In this document: in pieces, positions 5,224 to 37,840 of the stretch
Layout of the letters: each line of letters opens with the position of its first letter
Numbering within the stretch: position 1 is the first letter of the stretch
The notes under the pieces: generated by a model
The model's database searches: none
The model's input: the letters and a program-made list of their open reading frames with translations, nothing else
Told to the model about the DNA's origin: nothing
Assembly: GCA_002897895.1 (NCBI GenBank)
Contig: BDSY01000058.1
Span: 40,109 to 104,108, forward strand
Reading direction: 5' to 3'
DNA: 64,000 nucleotides
DNA from: a bacterium BMS3Abin06
GTDB lineage: Bacteria > Nitrospirota > Thermodesulfovibrionia > UBA6902
Program-made: the position numbers and the translations under genes

Positions 5224-5270
5224 TGACTTTTGGCTTCCAAAAAGTGTATAAGTATAGTATAATATACTTA
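5224..5270 (+). promoter_or_regulatory. Sigma70-like promoter (TTGACT-17-TATAAG) overlapping palindrome TAAGTATA-N6-TATACTTA upstream of the ArsR-family gene
   Basis: -35 at 5224..5229, -10 at 5247..5252, inverted repeat at 5249..5270. This layout is typical of an autoregulated repressor operator. Confidence 0.5.
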
Positions 5271-5280
5271 AGGAGTAAAA

Positions 5281-5676
5281 ATGAAAGTTGAGGCCGAGTC
5301 TTTTAAGGTTCTTTCGGTAGAAACCAGAATAAAGATTATTGAAATGCTAAAGGCAGGGCCACTCCCTGTGAATACAATAACAGAAGCATTAGGGATTAGC
5401 CAATCAGCAGTATCACAGCATCTTCGCGTGCTAAAGCAAGCCGGTTTAGTTACAGACGAAAGAAGAGGTTATCACATCTTCTATTCATTGAATAAAGATA
5501 AACTCGACAAGTACCAACAGGAACTACTAAAGGTCTGCACATGTGGCTGCAAACTTGCCAAGAGAAAACAGATTTCCGAGACAAGAGAGGCGCTGTTAGA
5601 ATATAAAAAAAGACTTGAAAAAGAAATAAAAGATGTGGGAAAAAGAATCAGGGACCTCGAAAAAGCGGCAGGGTAA
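5281..5676 (+). CDS. ArsR/SmtB-family transcriptional regulator with C-terminal CTCGC motif and coiled-coil tail
   Basis: Winged-HTH signature TITEALGISQSAVSQHLRVLKQAGLV, followed by KVCTCGCKL and a charged heptad-like tail. Confidence 0.75.
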   Translation: MKVEAESFKVLSVETRIKIIEMLKAGPLPVNTITEALGISQSAVSQHLRVLKQAGLVTDERRGYHIFYSLNKDKLDKYQQELLKVCTCGCKLAKRKQISETREALLEYKKRLEKEIKDVGKRIRDLEKAAG

Positions 5677-5698: not shown

Positions 5699-5722
5699 TT
5701 AAGTATATGCTAATACACTTAA
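5699..5722 (+). promoter_or_regulatory. Palindromic operator-like motif TTAAGT-N12-ACTTAA immediately upstream of the peptide-1 RBS
   Basis: TTAAGTATATGCTAATACACTTAA. The same architecture recurs at 12547..12570. Confidence 0.5.
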
Positions 5723-5734: not shown

Positions 5735-5929
5735 ATGTGCCAGGGGGGCATAGCTATAAGTCTAAAAAATAATAATTGTGGTTGTGAAGCGAAATTTGAG
5801 GAGAGAATTATAGGCAAGGAGGATCTGCTTACACGGTTAAATGAATATAAAAGAAATTTAGAATCGGAACTTGTAATAGTCAATAGCAAGTTAGAATCAG
5901 CGTCTTCCGCCGAGAAAGGAGGTGAGTAA
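5735..5929 (+). CDS. Small protein (64 aa) with NCGCE motif and a coiled-coil tail resembling the ArsR C-terminus
   Basis: Strong SD AAAGGAGGTG. MCQGGIAISLKNNNCGCEAKFEE...LNEYKRNLESEL. Its stop overlaps the SD of the next gene. Confidence 0.5.
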   Translation: MCQGGIAISLKNNNCGCEAKFEERIIGKEDLLTRLNEYKRNLESELVIVNSKLESASSAEKGGE

Positions 5930-5931
5930 GC

Positions 5932-6051
5932 ATGGCAGATACAAAAAAGGATACCAAGAAAAACGGAACATTAGGCAATGTTGTAAAAGAAATTAAGACA
6001 TCTAATTGCGGATGCGGTTGTGGTTGTATCCCTCCGCCATTCAAAAAATAA
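5932..6051 (+). CDS. Cys-Gly-repeat micro-protein (39 aa): MADTKKDTKKNGTLGNVVKEIKTSNCGCGCGCIPPPFKK
   Basis: Perfect SD AAAGGAGGTGA six nt upstream and a strong terminator downstream. A paralogue sits at 12643..12756. It is not in the ORF track because it is too short. Confidence 0.6.
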   Translation: MADTKKDTKKNGTLGNVVKEIKTSNCGCGCGCIPPPFKK

Positions 6052-6060
6052 CAGAGGACT

Positions 6061-6098
6061 TTGTGGGGAAGAGAATTCTCTTCCCCACAAAATTTTTT
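6061..6098 (+). terminator. Rho-independent terminator (15-bp perfect stem TTGTGGGGAAGAGAA/TTCTCTTCCCCACAA followed by a T-run)
   Basis: Read directly from the sequence. It lies between the peptide gene and the MoaD-like gene. Confidence 0.8.
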
Positions 6099-6112
6099 AT
6101 TGAGGAAATAAA

Positions 6113-6385
6113 ATGAAAATTAAACTTTATGCCAATCTGCGTGATATTGTCGGAAAAGATGAATTAGAAATGGAACTAAAAGAACCCGTTTCGCTCATTG
6201 AGTTTTTGAGAAATATTTCTAATGATTATGGAGAAAAAATGAGGAAATTCTTATTCAAAGAAACAAATGAAATTGCAGAATCTCTAATTATATCTATTAA
6301 TGGCGAAGTCATTAAGGAAAATAAATCTATTTTCTTATCAAATAAAGATGAGCTATCAATCTTATTACCTTTAGCGGGGGGATAA
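6113..6385 (+). CDS. MoaD/ThiS-like ubiquitin-fold sulfur-carrier protein (ends in Gly-Gly)
   Basis: 90 aa with a C-terminal ...LLPLAGG. The pattern is MoaD-like. Confidence 0.65.
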   Translation: MKIKLYANLRDIVGKDELEMELKEPVSLIEFLRNISNDYGEKMRKFLFKETNEIAESLIISINGEVIKENKSIFLSNKDELSILLPLAGG

Positions 6386-6661
6386 TTGCAACGGATTGAA
6401 CATGTTATAGCTGAGATTGACCAATGTACAGGCTGTAATATGTGCACGTTAGCCTGTTCCATGGCACAAAAAGGGGCATTTAATCCAAGATACTCTAAGA
6501 TAAAGGTTCATCAAGAATTGATAGGCCTTGTTACAAAGATAGAATTTATTGAACAATGCGATATGAGTCTTTTAAGCCAATGTAATTTGATAGATTCTGA
6601 GCCGCTTTGTACTAAATATTGCATTTTTGATGCAATTAAATTTAAAAAAGTGGAGGATTAA
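6386..6661 (+). CDS. Small Cys-rich 4Fe-4S ferredoxin-like protein
   Basis: CTGCNMCTLAC (CxxCxxCxxxC) plus four further Cys. TTG start directly after the MoaD-like stop. Confidence 0.4.
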   Translation: MQRIEHVIAEIDQCTGCNMCTLACSMAQKGAFNPRYSKIKVHQELIGLVTKIEFIEQCDMSLLSQCNLIDSEPLCTKYCIFDAIKFKKVED

Positions 6662-6662
6662 A

Positions 6663-8006
6663 ATGAGTAATATTTTATTAATACGGCCTCATCCGGTAGT
6701 AGATGATACTAAAAATTTTCCTACCGAATCGCCTCCAATTGGTATAATCTCTCTTGGAAGTTTCCTGCGATCTAAGGGTATGGATGTCAAAGCCATTGAT
6801 TTATGCACTGACCCACAAACAGATATTGTTTCTGAAATCTTAAAAATTAAACCTGATATTGTTGGTATATCATCAATGACTTGCGACTTCCCCTCTGCCT
6901 TGAAAATTGTTGATCAAATCAAGCGACATTTTGATATTCCGACAGTTTTAGGAGGAGCACATCCAACTATATTTCCCAAGGAAGTTCTACAGAATCCCTC
7001 TATAGATTACGTAATAATTGGTGAAGGAGAATATGCCTTTCATGAGCTTATAATCGCGCTTAAGAATGATAAAGCATTCAGTGAAATAGCCTCTTTAGGT
7101 TACAAAGAGAATGGGTCGATTTTTACAAACCCGCGAAGACCATTTATTGATATTAATACTCTGCCCTTCCCTGATTACAGTTTCCTTGATAATGAGAAAT
7201 ACATTGATTTTGGAGAAAGATATCTTGGTTTTAGACACTTAGTAGCTGTTATCAGCAGGGGATGCACTAACAGATGTTCCTTTTGCGCTCAGCATCAGGT
7301 CTGGGGCAACCAGTTTAGATTCTTTTCTCCTGAGAGGGTGGTCTCTGAATTGAAAAGGTTGATGCAGGAATATAATGTTGAAGGCTTTTGGTTTAAGGAT
7401 AGCGTCCTCACAGTTAAAAACTGGACAATTCCATTTTGTGAGGAGATAAGCAGGCAAAAATTGAATGTTAAATGGGCGTGTTTAGCAAGGGTGGATCAGG
7501 TAGATAAAGAACTTATTAAAAGTATGAAGAAAGCCGGTTTAGTAAAATTATGGATAGGTGCAGAATCTGCTTCCGATAGAATTCTTCAGTTACTCAATAA
7601 ATGGATTACAGTGGATCAGACACGAAAAGCTTTTCGTATATGTAAAGACGAGTGTGTTGATACTGCAGCCTTTTTTATGTTTGGCCTCCCAACAGAAACA
7701 GTAGATGAGATGGAGTTAACCTTTGAGTTGATCCGTGAAACGAACCCTAAGCCATTGCATTTGGCAATTTATCACCCATTGCCAGGAACAGAATTGTACG
7801 AAAAATACAATGGGGCAGATGTCATAAAACATGCAAATCCCAGAGAGTTAGTCTTTGACATGGCCTGTATGTCAACAGGACCTGTGAGTAAAGAACTTGT
7901 TCAGGAGATATACGATAGCATTTGTAACTACTTCATCAAGAATGGCTCAAAACCTGACTTTAAAGAATTTAAGAGAATAGCCTCATTTCAGGAAGCGAGG
8001 GTTTAA
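6663..8006 (+). CDS. B12-binding-domain radical SAM enzyme (class B rSAM)
   Basis: N-terminal Rossmann-like B12-binding domain, then CTNRCSFC (CxxxCxxC). No SPASM-type C-terminal Cys cluster is visible. The start is chosen at the ATG after SD GGAGGA rather than the track's 6627. Confidence 0.7.
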   Translation: MSNILLIRPHPVVDDTKNFPTESPPIGIISLGSFLRSKGMDVKAIDLCTDPQTDIVSEILKIKPDIVGISSMTCDFPSALKIVDQIKRHFDIPTVLGGAHPTIFPKEVLQNPSIDYVIIGEGEYAFHELIIALKNDKAFSEIASLGYKENGSIFTNPRRPFIDINTLPFPDYSFLDNEKYIDFGERYLGFRHLVAVISRGCTNRCSFCAQHQVWGNQFRFFSPERVVSELKRLMQEYNVEGFWFKDSVLTVKNWTIPFCEEISRQKLNVKWACLARVDQVDKELIKSMKKAGLVKLWIGAESASDRILQLLNKWITVDQTRKAFRICKDECVDTAAFFMFGLPTETVDEMELTFELIRETNPKPLHLAIYHPLPGTELYEKYNGADVIKHANPRELVFDMACMSTGPVSKELVQEIYDSICNYFIKNGSKPDFKEFKRIASFQEARV

Positions 8007-9875
8007 TTGCTATACGGATATGCAGGAAAGATTCTCAGGATTAACCTAACAACATCCAAAATTACCAAAGAAGATATTCCAGAAGATTTCTACCAAAAGT
8101 ACCTCGGTGGTAATGGTTTTGGTGCACGACTACTTTATACAGAGCTGAAACCTAAAATAGATCCACTGAGCAGTGAAAATATTCTCATATTTGCAACAGG
8201 TCCTCTGAACGGCGCCATGATTCCAATGGCATCAAAGCTTTGTGCAATCTCAAAATCTCCTTTAACAGGAACATTTATGGATGGATTCTGCAGCGGGAGG
8301 ATTGGTTCTGAACTGAAATATGCCGGTTATGACATCCTTGTGATAGAGGGTAAGGCTGATAAGCCTGTCTATCTATTTGTCGATGATGACATTATTCAAT
8401 TAAGAGACGGAATGTCCCTATGGGGAAAAGATACATTTACAACCCAAATAATGATAAAGAACGAGTTAAAAGACGAAAGCGTTCAAGTTGCCTGTATTGG
8501 CCCGGCAGGTGAAAATTTGGTAAGGTATGCCTGCATTATAACAGAACAAAGGGCTGTTGGAAGTGGCGGGTTGGGCGCTGTCATGGGGTCTAAGAATCTA
8601 AAGGCAATAGCAGTTCGTGGGAGTAAGTTAGTCTCTGTATTTAACACTGCTAAATTAGAGCAATTTGTTCAACGGATAATAGTAAAGATCAAAGAAGAGC
8701 CAGCAGCTCAAGTTCTTTCAAAATACGGCACTGCGGTAGTTACGTCGGTTTTGCAATATATTGGAGGACTTCCAACGAAAAACTGGCAGTCAGGTATATT
8801 CCCGGATAGTAAGGCGCTTTCGGCAGAAACACTTGTCGATAAATATACACAGAAAAACTTATCATGTTTTGCCTGTATGATCCCATGTGGACATTATTCT
8901 GTCGTTAAAGAAGGCCCATATAAAGGGGCGATTACTAATGGTCCGGAATTTCAAAGCATAGGCGTTTTTGGCCCATTGACTGGAAATAAAAGATTGGATG
9001 CAATTATCATGGCCGATAGACTTTGCGATGAATACGGCTTAGGACAGATATCGGCAGGGGTTTGTATATCTTTTGCCATGGAATGTTTTGAGCGAGGACT
9101 TATTACCAAGAAAGATACCGATGGGATAGAGTTGAGATTTGGCAATCATGAAGCAATGATAAAGATGCTTAGAAAGATAACTTACAGGGAAGGGATAGGG
9201 GATATTCTTGCCGAAGGGGTTAAAAGGGCATCAGCTATTTTAGGAAGAGGTACAGAAAGATATGCCATCCATGTAAAAGGGATGGAGATGGCATGCTTCT
9301 GTCCCCGGGTTTTAAAGACACAGGCCTTTGGTTTTGTTGTCTCCTCAAAAGGACCAAGCCACAATGAAGTGCGTATTACAGCAGAATTGGGAAGATTAAT
9401 TCCTAATGACTTAAAGAACGGCTTAGGCTATTTGGCTAAAGAACTGATGGATTGGAGTGCAATAGCCAATTCATTAATTTGGTGTCTTAGTGCTGAAAGG
9501 ATTTTGGATATAAAATTATCCGAAGAAGTAGTAGAGATGCTCAACTTTACGACGGGAATGGATTTTGATAAAACAGAATTAGTTAAGATCGCTGAAAGGA
9601 TTCACAATTTGGAGCGTGCATTCAATATCAGGGAGGGTTTTAGCAAGCAGGATGATGTGCTTCCAAAAAGATTTCTGAAAGAGGCAATTCCGGAAGGACC
9701 TGCAAAGGGTCTGAAAATAAACAAAAAAATACTCAATGCAACTATCGATGAATACTATGCTGCCAGGGGGTGGGATAAAGGAGGCAGACCTACTATGAAT
9801 AAACTTTTAGAACTCGGATTAGAGGATGTAATGGTATATATAAATGATGAGGAGAGAATGCCTGCAGGAAAATGA
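8007..9875 (+). CDS. aor: Aldehyde:ferredoxin oxidoreductase family (tungsto-/molybdo-pterin) enzyme
   Basis: AOR N-terminal signature MLYGYAGKILRINL...LGGNGFGARLLY; 622 aa. TTG start abuts the rSAM stop. Confidence 0.8.
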   Translation: MLYGYAGKILRINLTTSKITKEDIPEDFYQKYLGGNGFGARLLYTELKPKIDPLSSENILIFATGPLNGAMIPMASKLCAISKSPLTGTFMDGFCSGRIGSELKYAGYDILVIEGKADKPVYLFVDDDIIQLRDGMSLWGKDTFTTQIMIKNELKDESVQVACIGPAGENLVRYACIITEQRAVGSGGLGAVMGSKNLKAIAVRGSKLVSVFNTAKLEQFVQRIIVKIKEEPAAQVLSKYGTAVVTSVLQYIGGLPTKNWQSGIFPDSKALSAETLVDKYTQKNLSCFACMIPCGHYSVVKEGPYKGAITNGPEFQSIGVFGPLTGNKRLDAIIMADRLCDEYGLGQISAGVCISFAMECFERGLITKKDTDGIELRFGNHEAMIKMLRKITYREGIGDILAEGVKRASAILGRGTERYAIHVKGMEMACFCPRVLKTQAFGFVVSSKGPSHNEVRITAELGRLIPNDLKNGLGYLAKELMDWSAIANSLIWCLSAERILDIKLSEEVVEMLNFTTGMDFDKTELVKIAERIHNLERAFNIREGFSKQDDVLPKRFLKEAIPEGPAKGLKINKKILNATIDEYYAARGWDKGGRPTMNKLLELGLEDVMVYINDEERMPAGK

Positions 9876-9926
9876 AAAGAAATTATTGTACATAACAGCT
9901 TTATCAATTGAATGAGGTAAAAAATT

Positions 9927-10943
9927 ATGAATAACAGATTTTTCTCAACCCAAAAAGGCCACACAAAATTATGGATAACAATTGGAATAATTGTTCTTTT
10001 TCTGATTGCTATGGGCTTATTTATATTTTCAAACAAAAAACCTGCTGATGAAATAATTATAGGTTATAGTGCATTACGCATAAGCCTTCCTGTCTTTGCT
10101 GCAAAAGAAAAAGCTTATTTTGCCGGAGAAGGTTTGAATGTTAAATTAGTAAGGTTTGACACTGCTCAACCTTTAATGACTTCTCTTGTTGCCGGCAGCG
10201 TCCGGATAGCCGGTTATACGGCCTTGCCAATAACTTATAATGCCATGCTCAGAAGTAAAACAGATCTGTATTTTGTTACAGCAATGCTTGAAGACCAAAA
10301 ACATAGAATAAGTTATCTGATTGTTCCCAAAGATACTCCGGATACTTTTACGATTGCTGAGTTAAAAGGCAAAAAGATTGGTATTCTTCCAACAGTTGCA
10401 TACAGGGCATGGTTAGAAGAAATACTGAAATTTAACGAAGTAGATCCTTCAGATGTTAAAATTGTGCAAATTACTCCGGCTCTTACTCCTTCCGCATTAG
10501 AATCCGGTCAAGTTAATGCACTCTTTACTAATGATCCTGCTGCTACAACAATTCTACAACGAGGAATCGGTAGATTGCTTAGTAAAGAAGTTGAAGTTCC
10601 AAAAATATTTGGAGAGCAATTTGTTTTTGGCAGCTTTAATATTAGAAAAGACTTTGCAGACAGCAATCCTGAGATAGCAGCAAAAATAGTTAGGGCATTA
10701 GATAAGGCAGTAACATTTGTTAATAACAATCCGGATGAAGCAAAACGGATAATGAAGAAATATTTACATGAATTACAAAAACCTTTTGTGGATTTCTACC
10801 CGGATGCCCTTTATCAAACCACTACAGAAGTTGATCCTGAAAAATTCCAGGATATTGCAGATAAATATTTAGAAATTGGAATAATCCAGAAGCCATTAAA
10901 GGTTGAGCATTTGGTTATTTCCGAAAAAATTTTTTTAAAATGA
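9927..10943 (+). CDS. ABC transporter substrate-binding protein, NitT/TauT (SsuA/TauA/ThiY-like) family
   Basis: N-terminal signal/anchor followed by an NMT1-like fold pattern. Confidence 0.6.
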   Translation: MNNRFFSTQKGHTKLWITIGIIVLFLIAMGLFIFSNKKPADEIIIGYSALRISLPVFAAKEKAYFAGEGLNVKLVRFDTAQPLMTSLVAGSVRIAGYTALPITYNAMLRSKTDLYFVTAMLEDQKHRISYLIVPKDTPDTFTIAELKGKKIGILPTVAYRAWLEEILKFNEVDPSDVKIVQITPALTPSALESGQVNALFTNDPAATTILQRGIGRLLSKEVEVPKIFGEQFVFGSFNIRKDFADSNPEIAAKIVRALDKAVTFVNNNPDEAKRIMKKYLHELQKPFVDFYPDALYQTTTEVDPEKFQDIADKYLEIGIIQKPLKVEHLVISEKIFLK

Positions 10944-10947
10944 AAGC

Positions 10948-11667
10948 ATGATTGAAATAAAAAATCTTAAAAAGAAATTTTTTTGCAATGGCAGCAATAA
11001 ATCCTTGTTTTCCGGATTTGATTTAGTAATCAGAAAAAGCGAGAAGATTGGACTTTTCGCACCAAATGGAAGTGGAAAAAGCACTCTTTTAAATATTTTA
11101 GCAGGAGTTGATAAAGATTTTGCCGGCACGGTTTCTATAGAAGGGAAACGTATAAGCTATATGCACCAGGACACTAATGCAACCTTAGCTCCCTGGTTTA
11201 CTTGTGAAAAGAATATTTTGCTTGTAAGGAAATATCATCACTTAGGCATTGAAAAAGGGAAAGCTTTACTTAAACGGTTTGTTAATGAAATAGAAATCAA
11301 CTTTTCTTTAGACCAATATCCTTTTATGCTTAGTGGCGGCCAGAGACAAATAGTTGCACTTCTGCGGGCATTGATATTTGAACCGGATGTTTTATTATTG
11401 GATGAGCCTTTCTCTGCTCTTGACATTGAAAAACGAGCTGCTTTTATAGAGTTTTTAACAAAACACTTCACTAATAATCTTACAGTAATAATGTGCTCTC
11501 ATAGAGGGGATGAGGTTAAATCATTGCTTGACAGAGCTGTAATTCTAGAACATCAGTCAGAAACAAGGATTACGATGGATATTTGTCGTTCCAAGTTCCA
11601 CTCTAAACAAGAATTTGAACAGATTATCTCTAAAATCAGATTTAAGAAAAACGGACATGAAATATAA
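10948..11667 (+). CDS. ABC transporter ATP-binding protein (NitT/TauT family)
   Basis: Walker A GSGKST, signature LSGGQRQ, Walker B LLLDEP. Confidence 0.8.
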   Translation: MIEIKNLKKKFFCNGSNKSLFSGFDLVIRKSEKIGLFAPNGSGKSTLLNILAGVDKDFAGTVSIEGKRISYMHQDTNATLAPWFTCEKNILLVRKYHHLGIEKGKALLKRFVNEIEINFSLDQYPFMLSGGQRQIVALLRALIFEPDVLLLDEPFSALDIEKRAAFIEFLTKHFTNNLTVIMCSHRGDEVKSLLDRAVILEHQSETRITMDICRSKFHSKQEFEQIISKIRFKKNGHEI

Positions 11668-12403
11668 GACCTCACTTATAGGGATTTTTTCGGCGGTTAC
11701 TATCTGGCAAATCATTGCCTGGTTAAAAATATTCAATCCAATTTATTTTGCCTCGCCCTATGAAGTAATTGCTGAATCAATCAAAATGATTCAGGGAGGC
11801 GCTGTTTTCATAGACCTTACACTCACTATTTACAGAATAGCTGTCAGTGTTATTATATCCTCACTTATTGGCATACCTCTTGGCATTGCCTTTGGTTATT
11901 TTGCTCGTATCTATAAATATGTCGGCGAAATAGTGGATTTCCTGCGTTCAATCCCGCCAATTGTAATTTATCCATTGCTCCTTATTGTCTTGGGACCCGG
12001 AGATAGTTCAAGAATAGGCGTTGCTCTTTTTGGCTCAATAGTTGTTTTGGTTCTTATTATTTCTAACGGGTTATTTCAACAAGCGCCATTGAGAAGACAA
12101 TATTTTGCATCTCTTGGAGCCAATAAGGTTCAGCTCGTAAACCACATTGTCTGGTATGAAGCGCTGCCTCATGTTATGGTCGCTTTAAGAACAGCAGTAT
12201 CCCTATCCATTATTATTATAGTGGTTACAGAAATGCTTGTTGGCGCACAATATGGTTTGGGGACAAGGGTACAGAACGTTCAAATTACCAGCAACATTCC
12301 CGATTTATTTGTCACTATCATTATTATTGGTTTAATTGGTGTTTTATTTAATAAAACCTTAATCTGTCTTGATAAGAAGCTTGTTTTTTGGAAATCTAAT
12401 TGA
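11657..12403 (+). CDS. ABC transporter permease (binding-protein-dependent inner-membrane component)
   Basis: Hydrophobic throughout. The start is set at the ATG overlapping the ATPase stop. Confidence 0.7.
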   Translation: MKYKTSLIGIFSAVTIWQIIAWLKIFNPIYFASPYEVIAESIKMIQGGAVFIDLTLTIYRIAVSVIISSLIGIPLGIAFGYFARIYKYVGEIVDFLRSIPPIVIYPLLLIVLGPGDSSRIGVALFGSIVVLVLIISNGLFQQAPLRRQYFASLGANKVQLVNHIVWYEALPHVMVALRTAVSLSIIIIVVTEMLVGAQYGLGTRVQNVQITSNIPDLFVTIIIIGLIGVLFNKTLICLDKKLVFWKSN

Positions 12404-12546: not shown

Positions 12547-12570
12547 TTAAGTATATGCTTATTAACTTAA
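12547..12570 (+). promoter_or_regulatory. Second copy of the operator-like palindrome TTAAGT-N12-ACTTAA
   Basis: TTAAGTATATGCTTATTAACTTAA, about 70 nt upstream of the third peptide gene. Confidence 0.5.
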
Positions 12571-12642: not shown

Positions 12643-12756
12643 ATGGCTGACAAAAGCAAAAAGAAGTCTTGTGGCTGTGGATGCGATATGCTGAAGCAAT
12701 CTAGCCGCAAAGCCGCAAAAGACGAGAAAGAGTCAAAAGTCATAAGTAAGAAGTAG
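12643..12756 (+). CDS. Cys-Gly-repeat micro-protein (37 aa): MADKSKKKSCGCGCDMLKQSSRKAAKDEKESKVISKK
   Basis: Same SD AAAGGAGGTGA and MAD-K-rich N-terminus plus CGCGC core as 5932..6051. Not in the ORF track. Confidence 0.55.
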   Translation: MADKSKKKSCGCGCDMLKQSSRKAAKDEKESKVISKK

Positions 12757-12854: not shown

Positions 12855-13991
12855 ATGAAAAAATTAAATATTGAAGAAATTAGAGAACTATCCGAGAAGC
12901 TTGCATCTGAGAAATTGGCGCCACGTGCCGCAGAGATTGATCAGAACCGTACCTTTCCCTGGGAGAACATTCGAGCACTTGGAGAAGCTGGTTTCCTTGA
13001 GTTGATCATTTCTGAGGACAACGGTGGCTTAGGATTTGGGCGAGTCTGCTTTGCTTCGGTTGCAGAGGAGATAGCTAAGGCCTGCGCTTCCACCGCTCTT
13101 ATATATGTTTCTCACTCAATCGTGACAAAGGCGATAGAACTTGCAGGTAGCGAGGCTGCAAAGAAGAACTGGTTAACTAAAATGTTAACAGGACAATCGC
13201 TTGGAGCGTTCGCTGTCCACGAGCCTGACTCCGGCAGCAACTCCGGAGCCATCACCACATTGGCAAAGAAGGAAGGCGATCACTATATCGTAAATGGTTC
13301 AAAATTTTTCATTACTTCAGCCGGGGAGGCCGACTTCTACCTGGTCCTCGTCAGGACTGACCCGGAAAAGGGGCCTCAGGGTATGAGCACATTGCTCATT
13401 GAAAAAAACACTCCCGGTCTTTCCTTCGGTCAACACGAAGATAAGATGGGTCTGACAAGTACTTCCTCAAGGGAGATGTTTTTCAGCGATTGCCTTGTAC
13501 CGAAGGAAAATCTGATAGGCAATGAAGGTGAGGGAACACAGGTTATTGGGAAAACTGTAGTTGGTTTGGGGTTCTTCGGAGCTGCCGCGATATCTGTCGG
13601 AATCGCAAGATCAGCCACTGAACTTGCAATCAAACATGCCAAGGAAAGAGCCATAGCAGGACAACCCATTGCCGTTCATCAAGCCGTTCAGTTCATGATC
13701 ACGGACATGATTCTTGGGAATGAAGCCGCAGAAGCATTTCTCAAAGTATGTGCTGCAAGAGCTGACTCAACTCAAGGCGCTGCCGTTATTAATGGGTTTA
13801 AGGCTAAGCTTTTAGCCTCTGAGATGGCTGTGGATGTTACAAACAAGGCAATCCAGGTTATGGGTGGTCATGGATACTGCCGGGATTATATAGTTGAAAG
13901 GCTTTTTCGCGACGCCCGGGGATTGACGCTTCACTTCAAAACTTCCGAGTGGCTTCGACAGGATATTGCCAAGGCAGCATTGGGATTGTAA
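12855..13991 (+). CDS. Acyl-CoA dehydrogenase
   Basis: ACAD fold pattern; 378 aa; good SD. Confidence 0.8.
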   Translation: MKKLNIEEIRELSEKLASEKLAPRAAEIDQNRTFPWENIRALGEAGFLELIISEDNGGLGFGRVCFASVAEEIAKACASTALIYVSHSIVTKAIELAGSEAAKKNWLTKMLTGQSLGAFAVHEPDSGSNSGAITTLAKKEGDHYIVNGSKFFITSAGEADFYLVLVRTDPEKGPQGMSTLLIEKNTPGLSFGQHEDKMGLTSTSSREMFFSDCLVPKENLIGNEGEGTQVIGKTVVGLGFFGAAAISVGIARSATELAIKHAKERAIAGQPIAVHQAVQFMITDMILGNEAAEAFLKVCAARADSTQGAAVINGFKAKLLASEMAVDVTNKAIQVMGGHGYCRDYIVERLFRDARGLTLHFKTSEWLRQDIAKAALGL

Positions 13992-14411: not shown

Positions 14412-15254
14412 ATGATCAGGACAGAAAATTTAACAAAGTATTACGGCAGTAAATGCGCTGTCAATTCGGTCTCCTTCAATATCAGGAAAGGAGAAGTCTT
14501 CGCGCTGCTCGGTCCTAACGGGGCCGGTAAGACAACAACCATTAAGATGCTGACCACCCTGAGCAGGCCTACAGAAGGAAAGATATTCATTAATAATCTT
14601 GATGTGGTAGTCGATCAGTTAAAGGTCAAGAGGCTGGTGGCCGTTGTGCCGCAGGTGGGAAACTTTGACAGGGAGCTTTCAGTATATGAAAACATGCTTG
14701 TTTACGGGATGCTTTATGGAGTAAAGGAGCCCGGACCGAAGATAGAAAAAAATCTTGATGCTTTAGGGCTGCTGAAAGAGAGAGATACCATTGCAGAGGT
14801 CCTTTCGGGCGGCATGCAGAGGAGGCTCCTTATTGCAAAAGCGCTCTTATCGGAGCCCGATGTCCTGTTCCTTGATGAACCAACAGTAGGACTTGATCCC
14901 CATGTGAGAAGGGAGATCTGGGACATTATCAGGAACATACGGAACAATGGGAAGACAATTCTGATGACCACCCACTATATCGAAGAGGCAGAGATGCTTT
15001 GTGATAGGATCGGTATCCTGTCTCATGGAAGCCTGATCGCAATAGATACTCCAGGGAACTTGAAGGACAACATAGGCAGATATGTTGTAGAAATTCCATC
15101 ATCCAATGGCAGCGGAAGGACTGAGCGTGTCATATGCAGAGACAGGGCTGAGGCGGAAGAGACCGCCCGAAGGTCTGACAACAGAGTTGTGATCAGGCCT
15201 GCAAATCTGGAAGACGTATTTATTCAACTGACAGGGGAGATGGTCGAGGGATGA
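14412..15254 (+). CDS. ABC-2 type exporter ATP-binding protein
   Basis: GPNGAGKTT, LSGGMQRRL and LFLDEPT motifs. Confidence 0.8.
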   Translation: MIRTENLTKYYGSKCAVNSVSFNIRKGEVFALLGPNGAGKTTTIKMLTTLSRPTEGKIFINNLDVVVDQLKVKRLVAVVPQVGNFDRELSVYENMLVYGMLYGVKEPGPKIEKNLDALGLLKERDTIAEVLSGGMQRRLLIAKALLSEPDVLFLDEPTVGLDPHVRREIWDIIRNIRNNGKTILMTTHYIEEAEMLCDRIGILSHGSLIAIDTPGNLKDNIGRYVVEIPSSNGSGRTERVICRDRAEAEETARRSDNRVVIRPANLEDVFIQLTGEMVEG

Positions 15255-15988
15255 ACTGGTACCCGGTATTTTACAGGGAGATGCTGCTCTTTAAGAAAAA
15301 GCTCTGTAAGCTTGGTTATGTCTTTTCATCTCTATTGTTCCCGGTGCTCTATCTGGTGGCATTTGGCATGGGGCTTGGCAGAAGGGTAAATATTGAGGGA
15401 ACGGGTTATATAGAGTTTCTTATTCCGGGCATAGCCGCCATGACCTCGATGACAAATTCATATAACCTTGTTTCAAACTCTTTAAGTATGGGCAGGCTTT
15501 TTTTTAAGAGCTTTCAGGTTGTTATCCAGTCACCTCTGCCGCATTTCTCGATCATGACAGGAATAGTGTTTTCGGGGATTGTGAAGGGAGCACTTGCATC
15601 TGCAGTTATTGTCCTCGCGGGCTTGATAATATTCAGGGCCTTTCCATTCAGTCTTGTCTCTTTTCTTGGGCTTTTATTAAACCTGATATTGTTCTCCTCT
15701 ATGGGTGTAGTCGCAGGGCTGCTTATAAGGTACCCTGAAGATAATGCTATTTATACCAACTTCTTTATAATGCCGATGGCATTCTTCTCGGGTACATTCT
15801 TTCCTGTAGACAATCTGCCGGCAGCGGTAAAAGGCATAATCATGTTTTTACCGCTGCACTACACCAACATTCTGATAAGAAGCGATGAACTGAGCAAGGA
15901 GGTGATTCTGCCGATATCAGTATTACTTGCAGTTTCGATAACACTATTTTTATGCGGAGCAAAACTGATTAAAAATTACAGTGAATAA
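15251..15988 (+). CDS. ABC-2 type exporter permease
   Basis: Six-TM-like hydrophobic protein; overlaps the ATPase stop by 4 nt. Confidence 0.7.
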   Translation: MNWYPVFYREMLLFKKKLCKLGYVFSSLLFPVLYLVAFGMGLGRRVNIEGTGYIEFLIPGIAAMTSMTNSYNLVSNSLSMGRLFFKSFQVVIQSPLPHFSIMTGIVFSGIVKGALASAVIVLAGLIIFRAFPFSLVSFLGLLLNLILFSSMGVVAGLLIRYPEDNAIYTNFFIMPMAFFSGTFFPVDNLPAAVKGIIMFLPLHYTNILIRSDELSKEVILPISVLLAVSITLFLCGAKLIKNYSE

Positions 15989-29711: not shown

Positions 29712-31076
29712 ATGTTGATCGACACTCATTGCCACCTTGATATGGATGCATTTGACAATGACAGGGATGCGGTTGTCAAAAGGGCGGGGGATGCAAATAT
29801 TGAGTATATTATAAATGCAGGCTCTGACAGAGAAGGAAATATCAGGGGCATTGAATTATCGGATCAGTACCCCGATGTATTTTCCGCGGTCGGGATTCAT
29901 CCCCATGATGCAAAGACGCTGGATACGACATTATACAAGGAATTAAAGGAGTGGGCAAAAAAGCCGAAGGTCGTGGCCATCGGTGAAATCGGCCTTGATT
30001 ATCACTACCTGCACTCTCCGAAAGGCGTTCAGATAGAGGCATTCAGACAACAGATAGCCCTCGCAAGAAGCCTGGGCCTCCCTGTTATTGTTCACAGCCG
30101 GGAAGCGAAAAGTGACACGCTGCGGATACTTTGCGATGAAGTGGCTGATACACCGGGTGTTCTCCACTGCTTTTCAGGTGATATGGATATGGCTGAAAAG
30201 GCGATGGAACTCGGCCTCTATATCTCCTTTGCCGGTACGGTTACATTTAAGAACGCAGAAAAACTGAGGGAAGTCGCCCGGTTTATTCCCGATGAATTCC
30301 TGCTTATTGAAACAGATGCCCCTTACCTGAGTCCTGTGCCTGTGAGGGGCAGGAGGAATGAACCCTCTTTTTTGAAATACACTGCCGAAGTCATGGCGGA
30401 GATCAGGGACGTAAGTGTTGCGGATATAGCCAGGATAACAAGACTCAATGCCAAGCGGTTGTTCAGGATAGGGGATATTGCCGAACAGGGAGAGATAGCT
30501 TATAAAATAAGAGACTCCCTGTACCTGAATATCACAAACAGATGTACGAACAGATGCGGTTTTTGCATCAGGTTCCGCACAAGTTATGTAAAAGGGCACA
30601 ACCTGCGCCTTGAAAGAGAACCTTCGGCATTGCAGGTTATCAAGGCCATCAAAGATCCGGGGTCATATAAAGAGATTGTCTTCTGCGGAATCGGTGAACC
30701 GTTTCTGAGGCTTGACCTTGTAAAAAAGGTCTCTAAGTGGGTCAGGGAACAGGGCGGCTCAGTCAGGATAAACACTAACGGCCACGGTAATATGATTCAC
30801 GGCAGAAACATACTGCCTGAACTAAAAGGTATTGTGGACAGCCTTTCCATCAGCCTTGATGCAGAGGATGAGGAGAAGTACAGAAAAATCTGTAAACCTG
30901 AAATGAAAGATGCCTTCAAAGGAGTTATATCATTCATCGAAGAGGCTAAAAAATATATTCCGGACGTAAAAGTTACAGTTGTCAAGGTGCCTCAGATAAA
31001 TATGGACAAATGTTATGCACTTGCAAAAAATTTAGGCGTTAAACTGAGTGTGAGAAAGTTTAATGTGGTGGGGTGA
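29712..31076 (+). CDS. TatD-family metal-dependent hydrolase fused to a C-terminal radical SAM domain
   Basis: N-terminal MLIDTHCHLD TatD signature. C-terminal half has NITNRCTNRCGFC (CxxxCxxC). Confidence 0.7.
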   Translation: MLIDTHCHLDMDAFDNDRDAVVKRAGDANIEYIINAGSDREGNIRGIELSDQYPDVFSAVGIHPHDAKTLDTTLYKELKEWAKKPKVVAIGEIGLDYHYLHSPKGVQIEAFRQQIALARSLGLPVIVHSREAKSDTLRILCDEVADTPGVLHCFSGDMDMAEKAMELGLYISFAGTVTFKNAEKLREVARFIPDEFLLIETDAPYLSPVPVRGRRNEPSFLKYTAEVMAEIRDVSVADIARITRLNAKRLFRIGDIAEQGEIAYKIRDSLYLNITNRCTNRCGFCIRFRTSYVKGHNLRLEREPSALQVIKAIKDPGSYKEIVFCGIGEPFLRLDLVKKVSKWVREQGGSVRINTNGHGNMIHGRNILPELKGIVDSLSISLDAEDEEKYRKICKPEMKDAFKGVISFIEEAKKYIPDVKVTVVKVPQINMDKCYALAKNLGVKLSVRKFNVVG

Positions 31077-32107: not shown

Positions 32108-32332
32108 TTGCATTACAGAAGATACCAGAGAAGAAAGTACTGCAGGTTCTGTGCAGACAAAGTAGATTTAATAGACTATAAAGACATGAAGACCCTGAGA
32201 AATTATGTTACGGAGAGAGGCAAAATCATTGCCGGCAGAATGACCGGCAACTGCGCAAAACATCAGAGGGCCCTGACAAGGGCTGTTAAGAGGGCGAGAA
32301 CCATAGCCCTTCTGCCGTTTATAGAGAAATAA
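32108..32332 (+). CDS. rpsR: 30S ribosomal protein S18
   Basis: YCRFC...Y.D...LR.Y..E.GKI...R.TG..AKHQR.L..A.KRAR; TTG start after SD AAAAGGAG. Confidence 0.85.
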
Positions 32333-32613
32333 TGAGAATTCCAAAAGGCCGGGTTACTGTTTTAGCGAAGGAGATAATTGAAGAGCTCCTGAGGAGGGAG
32401 CAGATTGATCTGAAAATCTCCAGGGAAGAGGCGGTTGCATTGATAGAAGGATTGCTGCTTGAAGAGCTGATGGTGGAAGACAGGCTGAATGCTGAAGTGA
32501 GAGAAATTTTAAAGCAATATGATTCTGAAATTGAAAAAGGACGCCTTGATTACCGCAGGCTTTTTGAAATGACGAAGCATAAGCTCATTAAAGAACGGAA
32601 TATTATTTTATGA
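32332..32613 (+). CDS. Small conserved hypothetical protein (tandem paralogue A; possibly DUF507-like)
   Basis: 93 aa; similar by eye to the next ORF. Confidence 0.35.
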   Translation: MRIPKGRVTVLAKEIIEELLRREQIDLKISREEAVALIEGLLLEELMVEDRLNAEVREILKQYDSEIEKGRLDYRRLFEMTKHKLIKERNIIL

Positions 32614-32888
32614 GACTTTCCGATGACAAGGTAAGCCACCTTACACATATCATACTGAAGGGACTGCTTGATAAGGGCGCCGTTACCCCCCTTGAAGAGG
32701 AAGGGCAGATCAGGCGTGAAATCAGAAGAGTCATAGTGAAAGAGTTGAAGATTGCAGAGGATATAGATGAGCTGGTCAAAAGGAAACTGCAGTCTTATTC
32801 AAAGAAGATATACGAGGGCGGTTCCGAATGGGAAGTCCTGTATAACAAGTTCTATGAAGAAGAAGCCGCTAAAAAGGGCAGATCTTAA
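32610..32888 (+). CDS. Small conserved hypothetical protein (tandem paralogue B)
   Basis: 92 aa; overlaps the previous stop. Confidence 0.35.
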   Translation: MRLSDDKVSHLTHIILKGLLDKGAVTPLEEEGQIRREIRRVIVKELKIAEDIDELVKRKLQSYSKKIYEGGSEWEVLYNKFYEEEAAKKGRS

Positions 32889-35489: not shown

Positions 35490-36368
35490 TTACCTTGAAA
35501 TCACGGCAGGAAGCCCTGTTGCACTTTTTATTGCGTGAATCATCAGTTGTGTGTCAACATATTTAAGCAGGCGCTTCCTGCCGAGATTTTTTACGGCAAG
35601 CATCATAAGTTCCGGGTCTTCTATCCCCGAACGGTGAACCTCAATATAAACCTTATTGTTATACATGCCTGTCTTTACCGGTTCGTTTAATATCTTAACC
35701 GGTGTTCCCGGTTTGATGAATTTAAATAGTGTTTTTATATCCTCAGGATAAAGCCTGATGCAGCCGTGGCTCACTCTGCGTCCAATTCCATACGGCCTGT
35801 TTGTACCGTGTATCCCATAACCGTTTACTGAAAGCTGCAGCCAGTATCCGCCAAGGGGATTGTCAGGGCCGGGTGGAACAAAGGCCGGCAGTTCAGGGTT
35901 TTCTTCCCTGATATTATCCGGAACATGCCAGACCGGGTCTTTGACTTTCAGAGTTACTCTGAAAATACCCGTGGGGGTATTGAATCCCTGTCTCCCGATG
36001 CCTATCGGGTAAGTCGTAACATATTTACGGTTATTTAAAATAAAAAAATAATATAGCCTCATTTCTGCAAGGTTAATTATCAGGCCGTCATCTAAAATCT
36101 CCGGAAGAAGCCATGAAGTCGGTATTATTATTCTGCTTCCGTTATCAGGCACCCAGGGATCACTGTTACTGTTGGCAGCAGCAATTTCGTTAAATCCTAC
36201 GTCATATTCCCTGGCAAGCTTAATAAGTGTCTCATCGTCTTGTATCGTATATGTTCTGTTAACACCTATAATCAATTTGGACGGGTTATCAAGAGGAAAG
36301 ACGCCGGAGCCATATATATTTGAAACGGCAAGTAATAAGAGAGCCACTGTTAAGGTCAGGATACGCAT
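35490..36368 (-). CDS. L,D-transpeptidase (YkuD/ErfK family) with N-terminal LysM domain
   Basis: HGCIRL catalytic motif, a LysM-like segment and a signal peptide. Confidence 0.75.
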   Translation of the reverse strand: MRILTLTVALLLLAVSNIYGSGVFPLDNPSKLIIGVNRTYTIQDDETLIKLAREYDVGFNEIAAANSNSDPWVPDNGSRIIIPTSWLLPEILDDGLIINLAEMRLYYFFILNNRKYVTTYPIGIGRQGFNTPTGIFRVTLKVKDPVWHVPDNIREENPELPAFVPPGPDNPLGGYWLQLSVNGYGIHGTNRPYGIGRRVSHGCIRLYPEDIKTLFKFIKPGTPVKILNEPVKTGMYNNKVYIEVHRSGIEDPELMMLAVKNLGRKRLLKYVDTQLMIHAIKSATGLPAVISR

Positions 36369-36529
36369 GCTTAATAATAAATTATTTTTTTATCTTTTTT
36401 CCTGAAAGTATTAAATTGCACACTGTTGGGTGACCTGGGATTCCACCGAAATATCGTTTGCATCGACCGGCTACATAACGTGCTTAATTTAGGTTACCTG
36501 TAGTGGTATGATTTGTTATAATTAATCCC

Positions 36530-37230: not shown

Positions 37231-37269
37231 AAAGCAGACAACCATAAGATGCTGATGGATGCATCAGAT

Positions 37270-37592: not shown

Positions 37593-37722
37593 GTTCTATG
37601 GTTATTTGGGCAACAACCCGTAAAGATGCGACACCACAAAGAGAGAAAGAAGATTTTTCAGTGGCTTAATGCATTAAGCAGTTGTTAAGATATGCAAAAA
37701 ATAATAATGGAAATGAGAGGGG

Positions 37723-37840
37723 ACAGAACACTGAAAGGACAATTTCAGCAGCCTGTCAGGGGCTGATCCCGTTCAGTCTCCGTTGGATATTATGTTGATA
37801 TTTGAAATGGTTCTTATAGCATGCATTCTCGTCGCAGGTA
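37723..37840. repeat. 118-bp direct repeat copy A (diverged duplicate of the promoter and 5' end of the gene at 38500)
   Basis: 111/118 identical to 38440..38557. Encodes a truncated MDIMLIFEMVLIACILVAG... Confidence 0.8.

Follow-up and report, generated by a model that had tools for sequence, protein, structure and literature searches.

What does a class-B (cobalamin-type) radical S-adenosylmethionine (SAM) enzyme do beside an enzyme of the aldehyde:ferredoxin oxidoreductase (AOR) family? The question is raised by a 64-kb stretch of contig BDSY01000058.1 (positions 40,109 to 104,108) of the metagenome-assembled genome (MAG) BMS3Abin06, from an uncultured, anaerobic member of the Nitrospirota; this whole stretch was analyzed and is called the window here. 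Four genes packed on its + strand encode a MoaD/ThiS-like protein, a ferredoxin-like protein, a class-B radical SAM enzyme, and an AOR-family enzyme. The pairing of the last two is real, conserved, and rare, because the loci that carry it share a gene set, no orthologue of the radical SAM enzyme occurs in 185,579 GTDB species genomes (one per species; best match, 39% identical), and an AOR, ThiS-like, ferredoxin-like, or acyl-CoA dehydrogenase (ACAD)-like gene is present in 0 of 157 loci of more distant radical SAM relatives (28 to 40% identity). Nothing relevant on the coupling of AOR with radical SAM enzymes was found in the open-access literature. An initial annotation, made from the letters alone, had held that this is not a described operon; the view stands, in that the pairing is not a common characterized operon and appears undescribed.

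A conserved and rare pairing of a radical SAM enzyme with an AOR

The four genes lie on the + strand where they had been annotated, with intergenic gaps of 0, 1, and 0 nt and a Shine-Dalgarno-like purine run before each. All claimed domains were recovered, with Pfam and NCBIfam matches above cutoff save for weak Fer4 matches in the ferredoxin-like protein. Since the genes are separate open reading frames (ORFs), they are better called translationally coupled than fused, as the initial annotation had put it. The TTG start of the ferredoxin-like gene lies directly 3′ of the TAA of the MoaD/ThiS-like gene, and the TTG start of the AOR gene abuts the TAA of the radical SAM gene (8006/8007). This last start is confirmed by locus L006, where the junction reads TAATG and gives the same MLYGY N terminus. 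The radical SAM ORF opens with TTG at 6627, but the true start is ATG 6663, 1 nt after the ferredoxin stop, because the N terminus is conserved from there in an alignment of ten orthologues and is preceded by a GGAGG Shine-Dalgarno sequence.

In a search of 5.8 billion protein clusters, the orthologue group of the radical SAM enzyme consisted of about 11 clusters at 51 to 96% identity, and the next match stood at 37%. Scanning metagenomes brought only three further loci. The gene set recurs in L001, L004, L006, L087, L088, and L093/L094, with identities of 51 to 73% for the radical SAM enzyme and 61 to 84% for the AOR, and is found in at least seven non-redundant loci from distinct metagenomic lineages. 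AOR, ThiS-like, and ferredoxin-like genes accompany the radical SAM gene in 7 of 7 radical SAM-AOR loci, an arsR gene in 6, the gene for the substrate-binding protein (SBP) of an ATP-binding cassette (ABC) importer in 5, and an ACAD-like gene in 3, the remainder being short contigs. Two gene orders were seen. In L004, L005, L006, and L093/L094 the order is arsR, micro-ORFs, ThiS, ferredoxin, radical SAM, AOR, (CopD-like), SBP, ATPase, permease; in L001 and L087 it is ACAD, radical SAM, AOR, SBP, ATPase, permease, ThiS, ferredoxin, ThiF, with arsR and a micro-ORF at one end.

Two features of the relatives deserve mention in their own right. The copy at L088:7181-10000 looks decayed, with the radical SAM gene split (210 + 195 aa), the ACAD-like gene truncated and lacking its HFK motif, and ThiS shortened; it could be a pseudogenized island or an assembly error. 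The closest relatives also carry a CopD-like membrane protein of ~163 aa between the AOR and the SBP (L004:5011-5505 and L006:4962-5453), a gene of which there is none in the window.

The AOR has an altered active site

The AOR-family enzyme matched AFOR_N (264.6 bits; cutoff, 29.8) and AFOR_C (410.2 bits; cutoff, 27), which places it in the family, and from the family a W/Mo-bis-pyranopterin cofactor is predicted. Its closest solved structure was Pyrococcus furiosus AOR (1aor; 435 bits, 40% identity), followed by FOR (353 bits), AorB (342 bits), WOR5 (282 bits), and BamB (223 bits). In P. furiosus AOR numbering, used throughout, the cysteines of the [4Fe-4S] cluster (C288, C291, C295, and C494) are all kept in the window AOR and in all close homologues, and Asp338 and His448 are retained. 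Glu313 of the E-Y-E motif, the proposed general base of AOR, is Gln in the window enzyme and Glu in all five of the aligned solved AORs, FOR, and AorB. Of the Glu313 and His448 that mark the active site of the AOR sensu stricto and FOR types, His448 is thus present but Glu313 is replaced.

In the AOR search, the number of scored candidates was capped at 8,000 (7,951 at E ≤ 1e-50). We aligned 120 homologues together with P. furiosus AOR; 13 sequences are members of the window clade (56 to 99% identical) and 108 are others (107 homologues and P. furiosus AOR). Position 313 is Gln in 13 of 13 clade members and Glu in 107 of the 108 others. The sole other position that divides the clade from the rest in this way is Asp343, in the first pterin-binding motif, which has become Gly. 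In the two pterin-binding DxxGL(C/D)x motifs (338 to 344 and 489 to 495), the window AOR retains D338 and C494 but has Gly for D343 and Asn for D489. As judged from the alignment, two acidic groups are removed from the active-site region, and the Gln-variant clade (E313Q, D343G) appears undescribed. It includes the AORs of L089 and P0132, which occur without a radical SAM gene, so E313Q is older than the pairing. Gly at the Asp343 position is also found in P0134, a Glu-type AOR with no radical SAM gene nearby.

The MAG annotation names this protein "putative oxidoreductase YdhV." Identity with Escherichia coli YdhV was rejected: the NF007354 score was 262.9 bits (cutoff, 868), over the N-terminal part only, and the active-site region of YdhV does not align with the window AOR.

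The radical SAM enzyme belongs to no named class-B subfamily

The initial annotation had assigned the enzyme to class B and named the lack of a cobalamin-binding domain as what would overturn it; the domain is present by sequence and by fold. A B12-binding domain (PF02310, 92.3 bits; cutoff, 32.1) lies N-terminal to the radical SAM domain (PF04055, 68.8 bits; cutoff, 29.5), the arrangement of class B, and the CX3CX2C motif (C201/C205/C208) is invariant in 116 sequences. Foldseek searches with the AlphaFold model (pLDDT, 75.7) matched OxsB, TsrM, MgmA, AprD4, TokK, and CysS with probability 1.0 and TM-scores of 0.6 to 0.73, AprD4 being the best by TM-score. The matched folds include the non-methylating OxsB and the diol dehydratase AprD4. 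Among solved enzymes, AprD4 (72 bits) and OxsB (52 bits) gave the leading sequence matches, the first confined to the radical SAM core and the second taking in the B12 domain as well.

No NCBIfam equivalog cutoff for a named class-B subfamily (BchE, HpnJ, ApyD, BzaD, PhpK, MgmA, HpnR, ArsL, and others) was reached; the best was BchE at 199.7 bits (cutoff, 481.35), with all others far below cutoff. The MAG annotation "coproporphyrinogen III oxidase" was rejected, the equivalog cutoffs not being reached. The enzyme and 106 relatives have in common a B12-domain signature, GGxH...GEGE, and the CX3CX2C motif, and 23 residues, C402 among them, are invariant in the orthologues and absent from the relatives.

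The MoaD/ThiS-like and ferredoxin-like genes belong to a wider AOR arrangement

The MoaD/ThiS-like protein matched PF02597 (36 bits; cutoff, 22.5) and TIGR01687 moaD_arch (55.1 bits; cutoff, 49.5) and thus belongs to the MoaD/ThiS family; its C-terminal ...LAGG is invariant in seven orthologues. The ferredoxin-like protein has the cysteine pattern CX2CX2CX3C...CX7-8CX8-9CX3C, with all 8 Cys kept in all orthologues: one canonical motif and a second four-cysteine set of atypical spacing. Its Pfam Fer4 matches were weak and all below gathering scores, and it shows weak similarity to YdhY. In the loci examined, its gene always adjoins ThiS and AOR, and the protein is probably an electron-transfer subunit of the AOR.

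These two genes also accompany AORs elsewhere. L089, whose AOR is 57% identical to that of the window and which has no radical SAM gene within 10 kb, carries Crp, ThiS, a 100-aa protein, AOR, a hydrolase, an energy-coupling factor (ECF) transporter, and an SsuA-like ABC system. The P0132 contig (8.8 kb), without a radical SAM gene, carries a ThiF-rhodanese fusion, ThiS, ferredoxin, AOR, and MacAB, and L090, with an ordinary Glu-type AOR (50% identical), carries cysteine desulfurase, ThiS, a 69-aa protein, and AOR. A ThiF (E1) gene lies within the cluster in L001 and L087; no ThiF gene was found anywhere in the window. The combination of a MoaD-like protein, a small Fe-S protein, and an AOR is therefore an already known arrangement that reaches well beyond the radical SAM clade, as the initial annotation had recognized. 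In Aromatoleum aromaticum, the aor operon encodes Fe-S, AOR, and flavin adenine dinucleotide (FAD) subunits and two MoaD-like proteins, aorD/aorE, which are regarded as W-cofactor maturation factors, and small Fe-S subunits accompany BamB, XOR, and bacterial AOR (PMC6365974).

The initial annotation had further taken the MoaD-like protein for the sulfur carrier of a pathway. This role loses ground to one in cofactor maturation, since ThiS, an Fe-S protein, and AOR also occur together without a radical SAM gene (L089, L090, and P0132) and since dithiolene sulfur supply would be expected to place a cysteine desulfurase or an E1 next to ThiS. On this gene content, a MoaD-like protein that serves maturation of the AOR cofactor, with the ferredoxin-like protein as the electron-transfer subunit, fits better.

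The importer and the radical SAM relatives may point to sulfur

The best NCBIfam model for the window SBP was SsuA_fam (TIGR01728), at 114.1 bits against a cutoff of 163.5. SsuA_fam was likewise the best model for the cluster SBPs elsewhere in every case, at 115 to 151 bits with full-length alignment, again below cutoff.

The nearest outgroup of the radical SAM enzyme (33 to 40% identity) comes from Geobacter, Methanoperedenaceae, Acetobacterium, Chlorobiaceae, and other MAGs, and has a conserved module of its own. Of the 157 outgroup loci, 47 have a "variant radical SAM" protein (NF045502) as a neighbor, 38 an unknown 155-aa protein, 35 an SsuA-like SBP together with a permease and an ATPase, 26 SAM synthetase (MetK), 25 a QueG/reductive-dehalogenase-like protein, and 3 nitrogenase-like genes. 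The SBP of one such locus, L010, passes the SsuA family cutoff (200.6 versus 163.5 bits). Nitrogenase-like genes beside sulfonate ABC transporters are a signature of anaerobic organosulfur assimilation by the MAR and ISR systems (PMC13474568, PMC11423573), and the outgroup islands with nitrogenase-like genes and SsuA resemble these assimilation islands.

This sister radical SAM system is an observation apart from the window cluster. It was seen in L009 to L012, L014, L015, L019, L020, L022, and L097 to L100 (for example, L010:6042-12933), and it looks like an undescribed anaerobic organosulfur system that is far commoner than the radical SAM-AOR cluster.

Because the window transporter gave weak NCBIfam matches to SaoX, SaoA, and SaoP, a selenocysteine-assisted organometallic (SAO) locus (Haft; preprint 10.1101/2022.07.06.499078) was also considered. 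It was rejected, with 53 versus 300 bits for SaoX, 112 versus 360 for SaoA, and 92 versus 295 for SaoP, and no SaoL.

A separable ArsR module flanks the operon

The ArsR protein matched NF033788 (92.8 bits; cutoff, 55) and PF01022 (57.5 bits) and falls in the HTH_metalloreg subfamily; it is neither BigR (44 versus 155 bits) nor TsoR (52 versus 115 bits). Its C-x-C-x-C motif is kept in all orthologues and in L176. Micro-protein 1 is kept in L004, L005, L006, and L093/L094 and has no Pfam or NCBIfam match; the idea that it is a paralogue of the ArsR C terminus was rejected, as BLASTP gave no alignment. A Lys-rich CGCGC(GC) micro-ORF stands beside arsR in L176 and in every radical SAM-AOR locus long enough to show it.

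The ACAD-like protein matched PF02771, PF02770, and PF00441, all above cutoff, and aligns end to end with butyryl-CoA dehydrogenases, with HFK opposite the catalytic YEG of Bcd (5ol2_C) and SCAD (1jqi). Read directly from the alignments, there is no Glu at the alternative IVD/LCAD-type position either. The HFK motif is kept in L001, in L087, and in 118 of 120 homologues among the matches listed (all at 71 to 86% identity). In contrast to the radical SAM enzyme, the ACAD-like protein is common, and its HFK family is large and highly conserved. The best NCBIfam models were acryloyl-CoA reductase AcrC (317 bits; cutoff, 640) and 3-sulfinopropionyl-CoA desulfinase (246 bits; cutoff, 600). Among sequenced plasmids there were no close homologues, all matches being <60% identical. 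The initial annotation had missed that the AOR and the ACAD-like protein have, on these alignments, each lost the catalytic Glu.

The same trio stands alone at L176:7507-9400: an ArsR with the V-C-T-C-G-C motif and a coiled-coil tail, an HFK protein, and a 33-aa micro-ORF (MAEEKQGTCGCGCIPF...) followed by a terminator. No radical SAM or AOR gene was found in that 17-kb locus (8 kb on each side of the ACAD-like gene). In L173 to L175, the HFK ACAD-like gene is divergent from another arsR gene, with DsrE-like, major facilitator superfamily (MFS), Pyr_redox_2, and MMPL genes, and adjoins OsmC and MerR/MerT. No description of the ArsR/CGCGC-peptide/ACAD-like trio, including ArsR with ACAD and persulfide or TsoR, was found in the open-access literature. 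Because the trio occurs alone in L176, the island is a composite of separable modules, a widespread cysteine-based trio with a rare ThiS-ferredoxin-radical SAM-AOR-importer operon inside or beside it. The ArsR (C-x-C-x-C), CGCGC micro-proteins, and HFK ACAD-like protein are a separate, widespread module, which flanks the operon and probably regulates it.

Within the 64 kb, a 24-nt imperfect palindrome (TTAAGTATATGCTAATACACTTAA) occurs at exactly three sites. Each lies in the cluster: one precedes arsR, another micro-ORF 1, and the third micro-ORF 3 and the ACAD-like gene. Similar boxes, identified by eye only, precede arsR or micro-ORFs in L006, L087, and L176, whereas a strict regular expression allowing ≤2 mismatches gave no match in other loci. 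The terminator-like hairpin between micro-protein 2 and the MoaD-like gene has a minimum free energy of -37 kcal/mol (z = -4.4), and L006 has a hairpin of different sequence at the same place. Because only ~20 nt lie between the hairpin and the MoaD-like start, the operon is most likely transcribed by read-through from a box-controlled promoter. Two other modes of control were rejected. Leader-peptide attenuation, in which the Cys-rich micro-ORF and the terminator would sense cysteine, is contradicted by L001, L087, and L088, where the micro-ORF is downstream of or divergent from the operon; riboswitch control fails for lack of a molybdenum cofactor or thiamine pyrophosphate (TPP) riboswitch at the cluster.

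These results bear on the suggestion of the initial annotation that the whole island serves one metabolite system. The shared operator-like boxes tie the regulation of its parts together, but there are two separable modules, and of the ABC systems that had been counted in, the second (ABC-2 type, 14412 to 15988) lies outside the conserved cluster.

Organization of the island and its surroundings

The features of the island are listed in Table 1. GC content is 0.37 to 0.38 in the cluster (0.37 for positions 6001 to 12000) and 0.43 elsewhere in the window. In L087 the cluster is flanked by integrase, D5-type primase, and Toprim genes (L087:1-5421), and in L001 by a transposase gene (L001:18534-19028). 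The AT-rich composition together with the integrase and primase of L087 and the transposase of L001 suggests that the region from 5.2 to 14.0 kb, probably an ArsR-controlled island of two modules, is horizontally mobile.

Table 1. Features of the radical SAM-AOR island, by position in the window
Feature	Position	Strand	Basis
Operator-like box 1, imperfect palindrome ATAAGTATAGTATAATATACTTAA, 5′ of arsR	5248..5271		24-nt box match
ArsR/SmtB-family regulator, C-terminal V-C-T-C-G-C motif, coiled-coil tail	5281..5676	+	NF033788, PF01022
Operator-like box 2 TTAAGTATATGCTAATACACTTAA, 5′ of micro-ORF 1	5699..5722		24-nt box match
Micro-protein 1, 64 aa, N-terminal CGC then predicted helical tail	5735..5929	+	Good Shine-Dalgarno, kept in relatives
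Micro-protein 2, 39 aa, Lys-rich, ...SNCGCGCGCIPPPFKK	5932..6051	+	CGCGC(GC) micro-ORF beside arsR
Terminator-like hairpin, 14-bp stem then T-run, between micro-protein 2 and MoaD-like gene	6060..6091	+	
MoaD/ThiS-family ubiquitin-like protein, 90 aa, ends ...LAGG	6113..6385	+	TIGR01687, PF02597
Small 8-Cys ferredoxin-like protein, 91 aa	6386..6661	+	TTG start; conserved Cys
Class-B (B12-binding domain) radical SAM enzyme, 447 aa	6663..8006	+	PF02310, PF04055
AOR-family pyranopterin/[4Fe-4S] enzyme, 622 aa, Gln at Glu313, Gly at Asp343	8007..9875	+	AFOR_N, AFOR_C
NMT1/SsuA-like SBP of NitT/TauT-family ABC importer	9927..10943	+	PF13379, PF09084
ABC transporter ATPase	10948..11667	+	PF00005, 81.7 bits
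ABC permease; ORF opens TTG 11615, likely start ATG 11657	11615..12403	+	PF00528, 49.1 bits
Operator-like box 3 TTAAGTATATGCTTATTAACTTAA, 5′ of micro-ORF 3	12547..12570		24-nt box match
Micro-protein 3, 37 aa, MADKSKKKSCGCGCDML...	12643..12756	+	
ACAD-fold (ACAD-like) protein, 378 aa, YEG replaced by HFK	12855..13991	+	3 ACAD domains

The remaining window is housekeeping (asnB, ilv/leu, and phospholipid synthesis). Of ten window proteins tested, nine were identical to database entries from BMS3Abin06 and Nitrospirae/Nitrospirota MAGs. The sole Rfam match in the window was a TPP riboswitch at 42999 to 43101 (+ strand; 66.2 bits; gathering score, 54.3), unrelated to the cluster; it lies directly 5′ of the ORF at 43019 to 44476, whose mechanical start it overlaps. 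Three further stretches stand out. In one 454-aa ORF (29712 to 31076, + strand), a complete TatD-type hydrolase domain (295 bits) is fused with a radical SAM domain (71.5 bits). At 32332 to 32888 (+ strand), DUF507 is divided between two neighboring ORFs, of 93 and 92 aa, which overlap and correspond to the N- and C-terminal halves of its Pfam model. Positions 36000 to 40000 have low GC content (0.365), HEPN and PIN-domain genes, and several ORFs without a family match, and are probably a toxin-antitoxin or defense islet.

Comparison with described systems

P. furiosus AOR is the best solved relative of the window AOR, with the four cysteines, Asp338, and His448 in common; unlike the window system it is a homodimer without an Fe-S partner, and its Glu313, Asp343, and Asp489 are Gln, Gly, and Asn in the window enzyme. 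The product of the P. furiosus gene cmo is, we assume, MoaA-like and not a B12-domain radical SAM enzyme. The aorABCDE operons of A. aromaticum and Moorella thermoacetica share with the cluster an AOR-family subunit, a small Fe-S subunit, and MoaD-like genes (PMC6365974). The cluster differs from them in several respects: an FAD subunit (AorC) is lacking, the Fe-S protein is a 91-aa protein with 8 Cys rather than a four-cluster AorA, the AOR is nearer the archaeal type (435 bits to 1aor versus 342 to AorB) and carries E313Q and D343G, and a class-B radical SAM gene stands between the Fe-S and AOR genes, with an SsuA-like importer and an ArsR module in addition. Judged on its genes, the cluster is predicted to work like a multi-subunit bacterial AOR operon with maturation genes.

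The solved class-B radical SAM enzymes (OxsB, TsrM, MgmA, TokK, and CysS, with the B12-less AprD4) have the same N-terminal Rossmann-like B12 domain and CX3CX2C barrel, but the window enzyme is only 16 to 20% identical to them, and a genomic AOR partner is unprecedented among them. The MAR and ISR islands of anaerobes likewise cluster radical SAM enzymes (MarB/IsrB) with SsuABC/TauABC importers (PMC13474568, PMC11423573); however, the window has no nitrogenase-like genes, MarB and IsrB are NifB-like and not class B, and no AOR occurs in the described MAR/ISR loci. BamB of class II benzoyl-CoA reductase has the AOR fold with a changed active site, works with BamC as its small Fe-S partner, and is a precedent for a different, reductive reaction (PMC6365974), but it is distant (223 bits), its Bam partner genes are missing here, and the window AOR is much closer to true AORs. 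For the ACAD-like protein, the nearest parallel is 3-sulfinopropionyl-CoA desulfinase, a non-dehydrogenase that keeps the ACAD fold, as does the window protein without its catalytic Glu; the window protein scores far below the desulfinase cutoff, and the HFK family has its own ArsR-linked context. Nor is the desulfinase known to have the catalytic base.

The cluster thus falls outside AOR sensu stricto, aorABCDE, YdhV, the named class-B subfamilies, SsuA, and true ACADs, because Glu313, the FAD subunit, the required scores, and the catalytic base are wanting. The radical SAM/AOR pairing, the Gln313/Gly343 AOR clade, the base-less ACAD-like protein, and the sensor module all appear to be new.

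A tentative model and its rivals

The model that we favor, tentatively and with somewhat less than even confidence, is the anaerobic processing of an imported, probably organosulfur, compound. We infer from the locus each of its elements, namely complex formation, the direction of transport, the substrate class, the enzyme roles, and the ArsR effector. Module 1 would consist of ThiS, ferredoxin, radical SAM enzyme, AOR, SBP, ATPase, and permease, and module 2 of ArsR, the CGCGC micro-proteins, and the base-less ACAD-like flavoprotein. The AOR of module 1 and the 8-Cys, di-cluster ferredoxin-like subunit would form a heteromeric pyranopterin (probably tungsten) oxidoreductase, the cofactor of which would be matured by the dedicated MoaD-type sulfur carrier, with a ThiF/MoeB-type E1 added in other genomes. 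The SsuA-like importer would take up a small polar compound, probably of organosulfur or sulfonate type. The radical SAM enzyme would then carry out an oxygen-independent radical step, either a C-X cleavage or rearrangement (a 1,2-elimination, as in AprD4 and OxsB) or a methylation, and the variant AOR, with electrons supplied or withdrawn by its ferredoxin-like partner, would perform a redox reaction on the carbonyl or carboxyl compound so formed. Module 2 would be a sensor and response unit for thiol chemistry, with reactive sulfur species or a thiophilic metal(loid) as its ligand, and the operator-like boxes would put module 1 under its control.

Several points weigh against this reading. 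The SBPs fall under the SsuA cutoff, so that a sulfonate ligand is a lead and not proof, and the radical SAM enzyme is only 35 to 39% identical to its SsuABC-associated relatives, so its function may differ from theirs. The cluster holds no sulfite reductase, exporter, CoA ligase, aminotransferase, or alcohol dehydrogenase, and no enzyme of known, substrate-specific function. Gln-type AORs occur without a radical SAM gene, in L089 with a hydrolase, an ECF transporter, and an SsuA-like importer and in P0132 with a MacAB exporter, so the AOR does not strictly need the radical SAM enzyme. The exchange of Glu313 for Gln speaks against ordinary aldehyde oxidation, and the idea of an AOR that oxidizes an aldehyde made by the radical SAM enzyme may be wrong in detail. 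Cobalamin binding is predicted from the domain, and AprD4, we believe, has a B12-type domain yet binds no cobalamin. Finally, module 1 has no defined promoter, given the terminator that separates the MoaD-like gene from micro-protein 2.

The abutting radical SAM stop and AOR start, and a pair that is inseparable in 7 of 7 loci, would also suit a radical SAM enzyme that acts as an AOR maturase and modifies (for example, methylates) the pyranopterin or a residue of the Gln-type AOR, with the MoaD-like protein and ThiF, both of cofactor-biosynthesis types, in the same cofactor line. D343G removes a side chain in the pterin-binding DxxGL(C/D) motif and could make room for a modified pterin; pterin methylation by radical SAM enzymes is known from methanopterin biosynthesis, and a MoaA-like radical SAM gene, cmo, reportedly described by Kletzin and colleagues in 1995, adjoins aor in P. 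furiosus. This reading, which the initial annotation had offered as its alternative, is the main rival of the favored model. We nevertheless find a maturase unlikely. AORs with both Gln and Gly occur with ThiS and ferredoxin where there is no radical SAM gene within 10 kb (L089) or on the whole 8.8-kb contig (P0132), Gly at Asp343 is also seen in the Glu-type P0134 with no such gene nearby, and the nearest radical SAM relatives are not AOR-linked but travel with SsuABC importers, MetK, and other radical SAM enzymes. The Gly-Gly carrier can also be read as the start of thio- or methyl-metabolite biosynthesis, the pathway that the initial annotation had preferred, in which a MoaD-like protein thiocarboxylated by ThiF would donate sulfur and the radical SAM enzyme and AOR would build or tailor the metabolite. 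ThiF-type E1 genes in L001 and L087, the ThiF-rhodanese gene in the P0132 context, and the methylase activity of most class-B radical SAM enzymes agree with such a pathway, and an AOR active site that has lost two acids could suit a thioacid or other anionic substrate. An SBP-equipped transporter is an importer, however, the cluster has neither an exporter nor scaffold-building enzymes, and the window has no ThiF; moreover, ThiS-ferredoxin-AOR sets with cysteine desulfurase or ThiF also flank ordinary Glu-type AORs (L090), as for cofactor maturation. This route therefore seems to us improbable.

Similarly poor prospects attach to an island for thiophilic metal(loid)s (As, Sb, Hg, Cu, or Cd), in which ArsR would sense the element, the CGCGC peptides would act as its chaperone or buffer, the radical SAM enzyme would form or break a carbon-metalloid bond, and the importer would bring in an organometal(loid). 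Much about the sensor module is in keeping with this: ArsR belongs to the ArsR/SmtB metalloregulators (92.8 bits; cutoff, 55), its three-Cys motif is conserved, and the peptides have 3 or 4 Cys, motifs that resemble S3 As(III) sites and the SmtB/SmtA pair. A CopD-like membrane protein lies within the cluster in L004 and L006, the HFK ACAD-like gene is near MerR/MerT (L173) and near ArsR/ArsP (L176), the radical SAM enzyme has weak similarity to P-methyltransferases and ArsL, and BMS3Abin06 is a deep-sea MAG, from samples that presumably came from massive-sulfide deposits. But the cluster contains no known ars, mer, or cop structural gene, the scores to ArsL (65 bits; cutoff, 450) and PhpK (116 bits; cutoff, 600) represent generic class-B similarity, SsuA-like importers are not known metal(loid) carriers, and the AOR-family enzyme is left unexplained. 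Small conserved Cys-rich ORFs near a class-B radical SAM gene, with sub-threshold NCBIfam scores for ApyD (166.7 bits; cutoff, 750) and rSAM_ocin_1 (120.8 bits; cutoff, 281.85), might finally suggest precursors of ribosomally synthesized and post-translationally modified peptides. That the micro-proteins are substrates of the radical SAM enzyme, an idea raised by their place in the initial annotation, is very improbable and is largely refuted by context: the peptide gene always follows arsR and not the radical SAM gene, and in L001, L087, and L088 it is on the opposite strand or at the cluster's distant end; the trio occurs in the 17-kb L176 locus without a radical SAM gene; and there is no protease or exporter, the ABC system being an importer.

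What the cluster may mean

To the processing of an imported organosulfur compound a bolder claim can be added, which we regard as unlikely when taken as a whole: that the radical SAM enzyme and the Gln-variant AOR provide a hitherto unknown route, independent of oxygen, by which C-S (or C-X) bonds on the imported compound are broken or made, that the radical SAM enzyme yields the intermediate, that the AOR has given up aldehyde oxidation for a new redox reaction on this intermediate, and that the route is switched on by the Cys-rich ArsR/micro-protein/flavoprotein module. Glycyl-radical lyases and the nitrogenase-like MAR and ISR systems explain only in part how anaerobes, lacking oxygenases, use unactivated organosulfur compounds. 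Were the C-S route true, it would be a third anaerobic solution beside the glycyl-radical and nitrogenase-like enzymes and a new reaction class for the AOR family. The SsuA-like importer and the SsuABC-linked radical SAM relatives make the cluster, and its commoner sister system, candidate organosulfur systems.

AOR-family enzymes are, to our knowledge, the only biocatalysts that reduce unactivated acids, and we know of no AOR branch other than BamB that has left aldehyde chemistry. A base-less AOR clade that is obligately paired with a radical SAM enzyme in one lineage would be the second departure after BamB, and the Gln-variant clade would give a handle on the other chemistry of the tungsten pyranopterin site.

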